Source: Gammaproteobacteria bacterium (GTDB lineage: Bacteria; Pseudomonadota; Gammaproteobacteria; UBA4575). From it: DNA of 64,000 bases. Numbering within the stretch: position 1 is the stretch's first letter; each line of letters begins with the position of its first letter. The notes under the pieces were generated by a model that saw nothing but the letters and a program-made list of their open reading frames with translations, had not been told where the DNA came from and did no database searches. The stretch covers positions 192,001 to 256,000 of the forward strand of contig CBDCTA010000022.1 of assembly GCA_965221955.1 (NCBI GenBank). Direction: 5' to 3'. Below, piece after piece: positions 50,203-53,711 of the stretch. Both the position numbers and the translations under genes were made by a program.

Positions 50203-51612
50203 TTAACAGCTATAGTACAGCTCAAATTCAATTGGGTGAGTTGCCTGGCGTAAAGCAGTAACTTCATCCATCTTCAGTTCGATATAGCCATCGATACAAT
50301 CATCAGAGAATACCCCTCCAGCTTTTAGGAAGTCTCGGTCATTGTCCAAAGCCTCTAATGCTTGGTCGAGCGATGAACAAACCGTAGGAATGTTCTTTTC
50401 TTCTTCAGCCGGCAGGTCATATAAATCTTTATCGTTTGCAGGACCTGGATCAATTTGATTTTGAATACCATCAAGTCCAGCCATCATCATCGCTGCAAAA
50501 GTAAGATATGGGTTACCAGTTGGATCACCGAAACGCACTTCGATACGTCGTGCTTTAGGGTTTGATTCATAAGGAATACGTATCGACGCAGAACGATTGC
50601 GTGCAGAGTAGGCCAACATTACTGGTGCTTCAAAGCCTGGTACTAACCGTTTGTAGCTATTTGTACTTGCGTTTGAGAAGGCATTAATGGCACGTGCATG
50701 TTTGATGATGCCTCCAATGTAATACATCGCGGTTTGCGATAAGTTTCCGTAGAGATCACCTTGAAACAGATTGTTGCCTTCTTTAAACAGTGACATGTGC
50801 ACATGCATACCACTACCGTTATCACCTACAATGGGTTTGGGCATGAATGTTGCTGTCTTACCATAGTTGTGTGCAACATTGTGTACAACGTATTTTAAAA
50901 TCTGGTTCCAATCTGCACGTTCAACAAGTGTGTTGAATCTAGTTCCAATTTCACATTGTCCTGCGGTTCCTACTTCGTGGTGATGCACTTCAACCGCAAC
51001 CCCCATTTCTTCTAATACTTGACACATTGCAGAACGTAAGTCTTGTAAAGAATCGACTGGAGGAACAGGAAAGTAACCGCCTTTAACACCTGGACGGTGG
51101 CCAATGTTGCCATCTTCAAAATGTTTTTGTGAGTTCCACGCTGACTCATCGGAATCTACTTGAAATGATGCGCCAGACATTTCATTGCTCCACTTCACAT
51201 CATCAAACACAAAGAATTCTGGTTCAGGCCCAAAGTACGCCGTATCCGCAACACCTGTTGAGTTCAAATAGGCCTCTGCGCGTTTAGCGACTGAACGTGG
51301 GTCACGCCCATAACCTTCCATAGTTGAAGGCTCTAAAATGTCACAGCGTAGGATTAATGTAGAATCGCTAAAGAAAGGGTCCACCACTGCAGTCCCCTCA
51401 TCGGGCATTAAAATCATGTCTGACTCATTAATACCTTTCCATCCAGCGATAGATGAGCCATCAAACATTTTACCTTTTTCAAAAATGTCTTCTTCTACAG
51501 TTGAGGCAGGTACAGAAACATGTTGCTCTTTGCCTCTGGTATCAGTAAATCGGAAATCAACGAATTGCACATCGTTGTCATTGATCATTTTCATCACATC
51601 ACTCGCGGACAT
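50203..51612 (-). CDS. glnA: Glutamine synthetase type I
   Basis: [46 protein letters not shown], adenylylation motif DLYDLP. Confidence 0.99.
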
Positions 51613-51719
51613 TGGATTCTCCTTAGCTACGACTCTTACGTTTTATAATGTAATTTTTACAGTGTAATTCTTATGGTTGTAACTAATTGCTAGTTACATT
51701 CATATACTAGGTGTACTTA

Positions 51720-51735
51720 AGCACATAGCGTGCCA
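51720..51735 (-). promoter_or_regulatory. sigma54 promoter of glnA
   Basis: Minus strand TGGCACGCTATGTGCT (GG-N10-GC with near-consensus TGGCACG). Confidence 0.85.
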
Positions 51736-51821
51736 TTGCACTCTATTGAGGCCTGTACTCAAGCAACTGCGGCATTATACGCAGCTTTTGGTGAAGATGT
51801 AGGCGCACCAAAGTTTTTTTC

Positions 51822-51859
51822 TGCACCATTACAGTGCTTCAAAGCACCAAGTTGGTGCT
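51822..51859. promoter_or_regulatory. Tandem NtrC enhancer sites
   Basis: TGCACCATTACAGTGCT (51822-51838) and AGCACCAAGTTGGTGCT (51843-51859), plus half site GCACCA at ~51805. Confidence 0.85.
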
Positions 51860-52143
51860 TTAACAATTTAGTCTACAAACCACAATTGGATTGTTTGTCC
51901 AAACCTTTTTATTAAAGCAGAAGTACAGATATACAAATATTCCATTAAAAAGTAGTGGTTAAATACATAAATTAGAAGCTTTTAGAAAAATATGCTTTTG
52001 CCGAGATTTGTCACCAAAAGCCCTTTTGCGTAGACAAATTTAGTCCAAGTGCTAACTACGTCACATTCTTAAAATAGCATCATTTTCTTGTAACTAACTC
52101 TCCATCAGTAGGTTACTGAATTTACTCAATCCATCACTCAATC

Positions 52144-52159
52144 TGGCATAGGCCTTGCT
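52144..52159 (+). promoter_or_regulatory. sigma54 promoter divergent from glnA
   Basis: TGGCATAGGCCTTGCT (GG-N10-GC); predicted start ~52170. Confidence 0.8.
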
Positions 52160-52225
52160 CTATAGATATTAGAAACTTTTGAATGTGCTCGGGATGAGCA
52201 TAGTAACCACGACACGGAGGTCAAT

Positions 52226-52345
52226 ATGGGCGTATCAACAGATGTATTCACAACTGTGTATATCGTTTGGATCGCCGCAAGTTTGGCAGCATTAGCTTGG
52301 GCTTATCGAAACGCACTTAAAGAAAAATTTTGTGGGCACAAGTAA
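52226..52345 (+). CDS. 39-aa single-pass membrane peptide (not in ORF track)
   Basis: GGAGG SD 5 nt before ATG; MGVSTDVFTTVYIVWIAASLAALAWAYRNALKEKFCGHK has a hydrophobic segment followed by a basic tail; double TAA stop. Confidence 0.65.
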   Translation: MGVSTDVFTTVYIVWIAASLAALAWAYRNALKEKFCGHK

Positions 52346-52657
52346 TAAAGTTAAACCCGGTGAAAGTTTAGAAAGGATTCATTTATAAAGCACGGATGCT
52401 TTTTTACACACACGGAAATGTGTGCAATGAAATGTAGAGTGGTGCGATGCGTTGGCTAGCACAGTAGGGAACACTTAAGACAAGGATTGTCGCCTCTACA
52501 CTTTTCAATTTAATGAAGTTGTAACCTCAGGACGAGATACAACTTGCAAGGACGCAAAACTAGATAGCTCAAGATTGTTAATCAGGGGAGTTTTATCTAA
52601 ACCGACTTAGGGAAGAGGGCTGCGTGACAAGGATGTCTTTTTCGCAGCACCGATAGT

Positions 52658-52685
52658 AAAGGCAAGCAGCTCGCTTGCCTTTTTT
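52658..52685 (+). terminator. Intrinsic terminator of the GGA-rich RNA
   Basis: AAAGGCAAGC-AGCTC-GCTTGCCTTTTTT. Confidence 0.9.
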
Positions 52686-52787
52686 ATTTCTCACCAAAAT
52701 TTAAGAATTCTCCATAAATACTGCCATTTACTGGTAGCCGTTGCGACGCATCGCTATACTCACGCTGCAATCGTAGCCAGCAAAATC

Positions 52788-53711
52788 ATGTCAGAGACTC
52801 CAACTAAAAATAAGCTCATCAGCTTTCAACAGCTCATTCAAAGGCTCGAACAGTTTTGGGCCGCGCAGGGTTGTGTCATTGAGCAACCCTATGACCTGGA
52901 AATGGGGGCCGCGACCTTTCACCCCAGTACGTTCCTACGCGCCATCGGCCCTGAAAGGTGGCGTTCTGCTTATCCGCAACCTTGTCGGCGTCCCACTGAT
53001 GGGCGTTATGGTGATAACCCCAATCGTTTACAGCGATACTTTCAATTTCAAGTCGTACTGAAACCTTCTCCGGATAATATTCAAGACTTATATATAGAGT
53101 CGTTAACTTCTCTAGATATCGATCCTTTAGTGCACGACATCCGTTTTGTTGAAGACAATTGGGAATCTCCAACGCTTGGCGCCTGGGGCTTAGGTTGGGA
53201 GGTATGGCTCGACGGCATGGAGATTTCGCAGTTTACTTATTTTCAGCAAATCGGTGGTTTAGATTGCAAACCTGTTACGGGTGAAATTACTTATGGTTTA
53301 GAACGTATTGCAATGTATCTACAAAATGTCGATAGTGTTTATGATTTAGTTTGGTCACAATATGGTGAAGACAAAATACTTTATCGCGATGTTTATCATC
53401 AAAATGAAGTAGAACAATCTGCCTATAATTTTGAACATGCCAACACAGAAGCATTGTTTAAATACTTCGATGCTAGCGAGAAAGAATGTCAACAATTAGT
53501 AGAACATGAAGTGCCTGTTGCAGCCTATGACCATGTGCTTAAATGTTCACATGCATTTAATTTATTAGATGCACGCCAAGTAATTTCTGTAACCGAGCGC
53601 CAGCAATACATTTTACGTATTCGTAAGCTCGCCCAAAGTGTTGCTAATAGCTATTTTGAAAGCCGCGAAAAGCTTGGCTTCCCTCTAGAAGATAAAAGCT
53701 CTTCCTCATGA
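52788..53711 (+). CDS. glyQ: Glycine--tRNA ligase alpha subunit
   Basis: [43 protein letters not shown]. Confidence 0.98.

Follow-up and report, generated by a model that had tools for sequence, protein, structure and literature searches.

A putative sigma-54-driven, CsrA-sequestering RNA that may double as a small-protein mRNA between glnA and glyQ in uncultured Gammaproteobacteria

Described sponge RNAs and the glnA-glyQ spacer

The best-described CsrA-sequestering RNAs, CsrB and CsrC in Enterobacteria and RsmY, RsmZ and RsmX in Pseudomonas and Legionella, are RNAs of 100-400 nt that carry many GGA motifs in the loops of short hairpins, end at a terminator and occur in genomes with a canonical CsrA. 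The gammaproteobacterial Csr/Rsm sponge genes known to us are switched on by GacA/UvrY-type regulators; the later sponge RNAs RsmV and RsmW are driven otherwise. The window analysed here, a 64,000-nt stretch (contig C22:192001-256000) of a gammaproteobacterial genome of 2.69 Mb, 38.6% G+C and 29 contigs (G000), carries in the spacer between glnA and glyQ a locus that resembles the CsrB/RsmZ class in each of these architectural traits. It departs from that class in others. No Rfam model matches it, and no GacA ortholog was found in the family. CsrB/RsmZ genes have a sigma-70 promoter with a GacA/UvrY box, whereas this locus has a sigma-54-type promoter with an enhancer-like block and no such box. 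Its RNA, unlike theirs, also bears a protein-coding open reading frame (ORF). As read from sequence, the locus would form a separate transcription unit on the + strand of the spacer, from about 52170 to 52688 (window positions throughout). The most economical account, to which we give a probability of about 0.6, is an RNA driven by sigma-54 and an enhancer-binding protein that would sequester CsrA and, in this genome, would double as the mRNA of a small protein.

The Pseudomonas RNAs CrcZ and CrcY act through A-rich motifs, not GGA hairpins, and adjoin cbrB, whereas the RNA here adjoins glnA. According to PMC5113210 they are, like the candidate described here, protein-sequestering small RNAs (sRNAs), with promoters that need RpoN and the enhancer-binding CbrB; they also arise as the 3' untranslated region (UTR) of an upstream mRNA, and they antagonise Hfq/Crc, not CsrA. 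GlmY of Enterobacteria, as presented in PMC7073468 and PMC6075780, is likewise a decoy sRNA for an RNA-binding protein and has a sigma-54 promoter that is activated via upstream sites, but targets RapZ by mimicking GlmZ and not by GGA hairpins. RsmW of P. aeruginosa shares with the present locus an RsmA-binding RNA that is the 3' UTR of a protein-coding gene and that is not a classical GacA target (PMC4950607, PMC13622538). It is short and, by PMC13622538, iron-responsive, and neither a sigma-54 promoter nor a small membrane-protein ORF is reported in the titles and abstract openings of these papers. The flaA mRNA of Campylobacter jejuni is dual-function, being both CsrA-repressed and CsrA-titrating; according to PMC4894983, however, it is a long flagellin mRNA that works with FliW, which was not found here, and has its sites in the leader, whereas the RNA here has a dedicated 3' array. 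Judged by titles and abstract openings, full-text literature searches yielded no description of a sigma-54-driven CsrA sponge, and in the visible part of PMC8249394 RpoN acts on other genes and not on an rsm promoter.

Promoter, GGA hairpins and reading frame

The -24/-12 element TGGCATAGGCCTTGCT, on the + strand at 52144-52159, reads TGGCAT-N5-TTGCT (TGGCAT at -24, TTGCT at -12) and differs by one mismatch from the strict sigma-54 consensus TGGCAC-N5-TTGCW. Exact matches to TGGCAY-N5-TTGCW number 12 in the 2.69-Mb genome as against 6 for the reversed control pattern. The exact pattern is found at 20 of 20 loci that carry the ORF and at 12 of the 13 related loci that lack it (32 of 33 in total). 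Upstream of it on the same strand, at 51999-52046 (about -145 to -98 from the promoter), lies a block, TGCCGAGATTTGTCACCA...GTAGACAAATTTAGTCC, that is a candidate enhancer (upstream activating sequence). The block is present at 19 of 19 ORF-type loci, and its core, TTGTCA(C/A)CA...GCC, is retained in 12 ORF-less loci too. Between block and promoter, about 40 nt upstream of the latter, is an IHF-like site, ATCAGTAGGTTAC (52104-52116, + strand). Its TCA(G/A)T..GTTA is retained in all 32 aligned loci, in several of which the site reads AATCAATAAGTTA, in agreement with the IHF consensus WATCAANNNNTTR. Together, the -24/-12 element, the IHF-like site and the upstream block are kept in 32 of the 33 related loci, across seven genera.

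An activator block, a bending site and a -24/-12 element make up the textbook layout of an enhancer-dependent promoter. By this layout and its conservation the locus has a real sigma-54 promoter, probably enhancer-dependent, and we infer that the upstream block acts as the enhancer for a sigma-54 activator. The genome encodes rpoN, a point that the initial annotation of this spacer, which placed a near-consensus sigma-54 promoter at 52144-52159, had proposed to check, and it encodes 7-9 proteins with a sigma-54 activator domain, six of which, ntrC aside, matched no NCBIfam equivalog. A scan of the + strand of 51500-52900 revealed nothing that resembles a sigma-70 site. The same annotation had coupled the RNA to NtrC and nitrogen, and this part has to be withdrawn to what the neighbouring genes suggest. 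The upstream block is unlike the NtrC-type GCACC-N5-GGTGC sites that precede glnA in the same spacer, and a genome-wide search with the combined pattern of the block, made in pursuit of a regulon or activator, returned no second good copy; the nitrogen link is therefore one of neighbourhood only.

Downstream of the promoter, the + strand of 52160-52690 carries 13 GGA motifs, starting at 52192, 52216, 52269, 52375, 52394, 52414, 52468, 52484, 52530, 52550, 52587, 52611 and 52631, and no TCC. The motif at 52269 lies inside the ORF, and ten, most of them in hairpin loops, belong to a structured, GGA-rich 3' part of some 300 nt (52346-52650). There, sequence and folds place hairpins, all on the + strand, at 52371-52380, 52387-52402 (AAAGC-ACGGAT-GCTTT), 52407-52424 (CACAC-ACGGAAAT-GTGTG), 52479-52491 (GACA-AGGAT-TGTC), 52518-52543 (CTC-AGGAC-GAG inside GTTGTA/TACAAC), 52545-52556 (TGC-AAGGAC-GCA), 52563-52597 and 52619-52648 (GAC-AAGGAT-GTC inside GCTGCG/CGCAGC), while the fold adds a long-range stem of TGTAGAG (52433-52439) with CTCTACA (52494-52500). 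Six neighbouring pairs of motifs in the 3' part are 16-24 nt apart (52375/52394, 52394/52414, 52468/52484, 52530/52550, 52587/52611 and 52611/52631), and the two leader motifs, 52192 and 52216, are 24 nt apart. A spacing of 16-24 nt suits one CsrA dimer bridging two sites. The unit closes with an intrinsic terminator on the + strand, a stem-loop of ten pairs and a 5-nt loop at 52658-52682 followed by a T run to 52688. The earlier description of the spacer agrees well with this picture: every hairpin it named occurs in the sequence, its terminator at 52658-52685 is the one just given, and the positions it listed for about 12 GGA motifs are the starts of hairpins or motifs that hold 12 of the 13.

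In 13 other genomes of the genus the whole 560-nt stretch is found as a single copy, with 72-81% conservation; in G001, also of the genus, only short pieces were matched. In four more genera, where the sequence has drifted, promoter and ORF are still followed by 8-13 GGA motifs and by glyQ. The 3' parts of all 19 genomes hold 8-13 GGA per 236-319 nt. Folded singly, these 19 parts give GGA a predicted mean unpaired probability of 0.61-0.84, compared with 0.38-0.45 for all bases. The genome background (515 GGA in 200 random windows) has a mean of 0.317 against an average of 0.45. Wholly within hairpin loops of the minimum-energy folds are 88 of the 205 GGA. The exposure of many GGA in hairpin loops or single strands that characterises Csr/Rsm sponges, and that the initial annotation had read from the letters, is thus found in the predicted folds. 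In 18 of 19 genomes the loop of the hairpin at 52518-52543 contains (A/C/T)GGA, on stems of at least nine different sequences, among them CTC/GAG, TTGTAACT/AGTTACAG, GTGGCA/TGCCAC, GGTA/TACC and TACGCTGAGGT/ACCTTAGCGTG. We regard this variable hairpin as decisive evidence of structure. Covarying stems around GGA, next to the same promoter, recur between glnA and glyQ in relatives, where the initial annotation had suggested looking for them.

The first third of the RNA is of another kind. A 56-nt 5' leader (52170-52225, + strand), with a start near 52170 that is deduced from the promoter, contains a hairpin TGCTC-GGGAT-GAGCA (52186-52200) and a second, GAC-ACGGAG-GTC (52211-52222), whose loop is the ribosome-binding site GGAGG; both are seen on the + strand, the first in sequence and fold. 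Within the leader, CA(C/T)GGAGGTCA is invariant across 14 genus sequences. GGAGG stands 5 nt before the ATG at 52226 (6-10 nt upstream of it), which opens a 39-amino-acid ORF (MGVSTDVF...FCGHK; 52226-52345, stop at 52343-52345, + strand) with one hydrophobic helix. The ORF is intact, at 39-43 amino acids, in all 19 loci compared (the window and 18 related), and G044 also has promoter, ribosome-binding site and ORF, so that it is intact in all 20 genomes that bear it. In 18 sequences (G001 was omitted since its first codons stand in a different register), variable columns by codon position number 20, 13 and 33 of 39, and pairwise codon differences in the frame are 1498 synonymous to 1361 non-synonymous. 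The other two frames give 425 to 2488 and 198 to 2752, with stops. The intact frame and the pattern of codon positions and substitutions mark the ORF as a real gene. These statistics are those of a protein-coding sequence under purifying selection, and the predicted product is a small membrane protein that has been conserved. Neither Pfam nor NCBIfam gave a family for it; nine clusters were matched among 5.8 billion proteins, all unnamed or hypothetical, and in the Atlas no match reached 0.9 and no neighbour was informative. A conserved, apparently translatable small ORF on a candidate regulatory RNA is the feature that defines dual-function RNAs. Because its first third is leader and coding sequence, in this genome only the 3' part of what is otherwise an mRNA looks like a sponge: of the ~515-nt Csr sponge proposed initially, the 3' portion retains that character, and the 39-amino-acid ORF had been missed.

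Loci with and without the reading frame

The related genomes, gathered via a conserved protein, are all metagenome-assembled and go under the labels uncultured Thiotrichales or Gammaproteobacteria. Of the 56 family genomes, 20 have the ORF, namely all 15 of the window's genus, one each in genera g2, g6 and g8 and two in g9. It was not found in g3 (13 genomes), g7 (16), g5 (3), g4 (1), g10 (2) or g11 (1). A covariance model (R1) of the last 160 nt of the RNA, from whose training set G044 was absent, strongly matches exactly the 20 ORF genomes (118.7-175.2 bits), once each and directly after the ORF. It also gave two weak matches (about 25 bits) in g7, both within the glnA-glyQ spacer. A DNA search from one of these recovered the element in 12 of the 16 g7 genomes and in the sole g11 genome.

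These 13 ORF-less loci display 6-12 GGA after the promoter and no conserved ORF, and in 12 of them the exact sigma-54 pattern is preceded by the same IHF-like element and upstream-block core. A 130-nt core, compared in 12 sequences, forms hairpins with GGA loops, in which 12 of 37 predicted pairs show a compensatory change; this number was reached by none of 500 shuffles, and slid controls gave 2-3. Given this distribution, what the loci share at their core is the promoter with its RNA, whereas the ORF was gained or lost in particular clades. The presence of an ORF-less form in two sister genera means that the RNA part matters by itself. In the spacers of g3 (two genomes), g4 and g10 (one each), promoter and RNA were not found. 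In G050 (g7; L116) part of the RNA is kept, with no sigma-54-like pattern between glnA and glyQ. The g5 genome G018 (L122) has a stretch of five GGA about 130-220 nt upstream of glyQ, without an exact sigma-54 pattern, that ends in CTGTCTCGACAAGGATGTCGATTGACAG, resembling the last hairpin of the RNA. This stretch may be a reduced form with another promoter.

The ORF-less loci bear directly on the main rival to a sponge, namely that the locus is mainly a gene for a small membrane protein, in which the GGA of leader and 3' UTR let CsrA control this mRNA in cis, with no global sponge. The ORF is under apparent purifying selection and unbroken in each of its 20 genomes, the ribosome-binding site within a GGA hairpin with a second such hairpin 24 nt upstream is the usual layout of a CsrA-repressed leader, and another sigma-54 promoter of the genome also drives a small hydrophobic ORF. 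The explanation is weakened by relatives from two sister genera, 12 loci of which combine the promoter with a covarying GGA-hairpin RNA and have no conserved ORF. The ten further sites in the 3' UTR far exceed the needs of cis control, and the two roles are in any case mutually compatible. As a complete account, control in cis is in our estimate unlikely, at about one chance in five.

The position of the RNA suggests another role, that of a long regulated leader of glyQS through which sigma-54 and CsrA would control the expression of glycyl-tRNA synthetase. glyQ is next on the same strand in all 33 loci, and outside most of the window's genus RNA and glyQ are not separated by a T-run terminator. 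A strong, conserved terminator does intervene, however, in the window and 13 genus relatives, which makes a leader function unlikely in this genome. A -10-like TATACT (TACAAT in the ORF-less genera), missed by the consensus scan, is conserved at 52735-52775 after RNAs of both types and before glyQ, and is probably glyQ's own promoter; and g3, g4 and g10 keep glnA-glyQ without the RNA. A glyQS leader is accordingly a very improbable explanation of the locus.

CsrA, other partners and the genomic background

The genome encodes csrA, whose absence would, according to the initial annotation, have refuted a Csr sponge. Over 55 residues the 63-amino-acid product shares about 90% identity with solved CsrA/RsmA chains (E ~1e-28), and of the 31 family genomes sampled 30 have CsrA. 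In none of those 31 genomes did a protein reach the 280-bit cut-off of the NCBIfam equivalog for UvrY/SirA/GacA, which E. coli, as the positive control, passes; the best score was 178.8 bits, and the best candidate in this genome is NarL-like. No GacA box (TGTAAG-N6-CTTACA, with up to three mismatches) occurs in 51662-52787, and FliW was not found in this genome. With CsrA and without a recognisable GacA, GacA box or FliW, the cell would therefore need another antagonist. The 225 nt before csrA (L001:1275-1500, equal to G000 C2:164176-164401) are themselves rich in GGA (about 10 per 300 nt) and have no TCC, as would be expected if CsrA regulates its own mRNA.

Several observations weigh against a CsrA-sequestering function. 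Binding of CsrA is a prediction from motif and structure. The sponge-like architecture has no counterpart among described families: Rfam 15 at the gathering threshold gave zero matches in the window, CsrB (RF00018), PrrB_RsmZ (RF00166) and RsmY (RF00195) included, its Csr/Rsm models had no match over the cut-off in the whole genome and none in five related loci, and a search of 51600-52800 at E values up to 10 returned nothing Csr-like, only two chance-level matches on the other strand, in the glnA upstream region. The absence of GacA is defined by a curated equivalog cut-off, which a divergent ortholog might escape. G001 and four other ORF-type genera lack a T-run terminator, and so do the ORF-less loci. 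The well-aligned helices of the ORF type are 96.7% paired and nearly invariant, with two covarying pairs, a count that 23 of 500 shuffles equalled or exceeded; being nearly invariant, they neither prove nor disprove structure. RNAalifold on a 19-sequence MAFFT alignment kept only 25 pairs and lost the variable hairpins, which is why each sequence was folded alone, and, folded in full, the transcript does only moderately better than shuffles (z = -2.33). Exposure of GGA is weaker in the ORF-less loci (0.38-0.70 vs 0.35-0.44, with G057 at background), in part because the folded stretch ran on to glyQ.

The lack of a match to any known Csr/Rsm model could also mean that the GGA loops of a structured RNA serve a partner other than CsrA, either another RNA-binding protein or, by pairing, CU-rich or UCC-containing mRNAs. 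Some of the best-conserved stretches are longer than a CsrA site requires, for example CTTAGGGAAGAGGGCTGCG, which is identical in all 14 genus sequences. The best sites, ACAAGGAUGU, AGCA(A/C)GGAUGC and GACAAGGAUUGUC, nevertheless fit the CsrA selection consensus RUACARGGAUGU, the sites are paired at 16-24 nt, and the CsrA of the genome is near-identical to those that have been studied. We know of no other protein family that binds GGA loops. Such a partner is thus considerably less probable than not, and we rate it at odds of roughly one in eight.

The array stands out from chance by some measures and not by others. In raw GGA density it has equals elsewhere in the genome, and this too tells against the sponge: 692 of 107,170 windows of 519 nt have at least 13 GGA, and eight separate regions of the genome combine at least 13 GGA with no TCC. 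A loose hairpin rule (four pairs, G-U allowed) was equalled by 206 of 214,806 windows; it passed 32% of the GGA in the genome and was dropped as uninformative. In counts of the motif [AC]ANGGA, none of 214,806 windows surpasses the 3' part, which shares first place. Under a strict rule, requiring four Watson-Crick pairs around a 4-8-nt loop that holds GGA, the region is second in the genome with five, and the sole higher region, with six, is a cluster of dispersed repeats. Beyond this repeat family no other non-coding GGA-hairpin clusters stand out in the genome.

The repeats, elements of about 60 nt composed of short GGA-loop hairpins, occur at 17 places in G000, 22 in G001 and 26 in G004, e.g. 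L038:1654-1796 and 1847-1916 (G000 C29:283153-283295 and 283346-283415) and G000 C2:171090-171260. Because the genome bears them, GGA hairpins are not specific to the glnA-glyQ locus, a further point against the sponge. They give weak RsmY matches, and the weak RsmY matches in the genome, which fall on this family or on the 3' end of a gene, were rejected as sponges. The elements might be CsrA binders or lookalikes of the repetitive extragenic palindromic (REP) kind. Their abundance lends some colour to the idea that the array is a functionless, chance or selfish pile-up of GGA-loop hairpins, formed by decayed copies of a dispersed repeat. The RNA, however, occurs once per genome and does not match the repeats in sequence; together with its promoter it is conserved in synteny across seven genera, and its stems covary. 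We consider this the least probable of the explanations, with hardly any weight left to it.

If the RNA does sequester CsrA, its operation can be outlined as follows. An activator would fire the sigma-54 promoter and the RNA would accumulate; CsrA dimers would then bind pairs of its GGA sites (the six neighbouring pairs at 16-24 nt) and so be drawn off their mRNA targets, as with CsrB and RsmZ elsewhere. Leader-bound CsrA, acting through the hairpin over the ribosome-binding site, would keep translation of the small ORF low until CsrA has been titrated away. In a family with CsrA and no recognisable GacA/UvrY, the sigma-54 unit would replace GacA-dependent sponge genes. More tentatively, and with rather less than even confidence, this may apply family-wide: the GacS/GacA arm would be missing, a sigma-54 sponge would be fixed between glnA and glyQ and, in five genera, fused with a gene for a 39-43-amino-acid membrane protein, giving a self-gated dual-function RNA that ties a signal, possibly nitrogen status, to global post-transcriptional control.

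Should binding to CsrA hold, the input to the Csr system could be rewired to an enhancer-binding protein, an arrangement already known from CrcZ, which sequesters Hfq, and from GlmY, the decoy of RapZ. The RNA would be a candidate CsrA antagonist for a lineage with CsrA but neither GacA nor FliW, and would join the few sponges that are at the same time mRNAs, here of a conserved small membrane protein. As a family new to Rfam it would have two forms, one with the ORF and one lacking it, and the pair amounts to a natural experiment on a coding sequence joining or leaving a regulatory RNA.

Additional information can be drawn from the surroundings of the spacer and from a second locus. glnA (50203-51612) lies on the - strand and is followed by a DUF4124 gene, ntrB and ntrC, likewise on the - strand; glyQ (52788-53711) and then glyS are on the + strand. 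glnA has a sigma-54 promoter of its own, TGGCACGCTATGTGCT, on the - strand at 51720-51735, upstream of which, at 51784-51862, lie three NtrC-type dyads, two of them clear GCACC-N5-GGTGC sites and the other partial. Elsewhere in the genome, a second exact sigma-54 promoter, TGGCATAGCACTTGCT (L038:1338-1353), precedes by about 190 nt a hydrophobic ORF of 36 amino acids (L038:1546-1656). The region around it (G000 C29:282837-283415) was considered as a paralogous sponge and rejected, as its GGA hairpins are copies of the dispersed repeat and only promoter and ORF are conserved. Both are kept in the genus, and the 36-amino-acid product would be the second small membrane protein of this genome under sigma-54 control.

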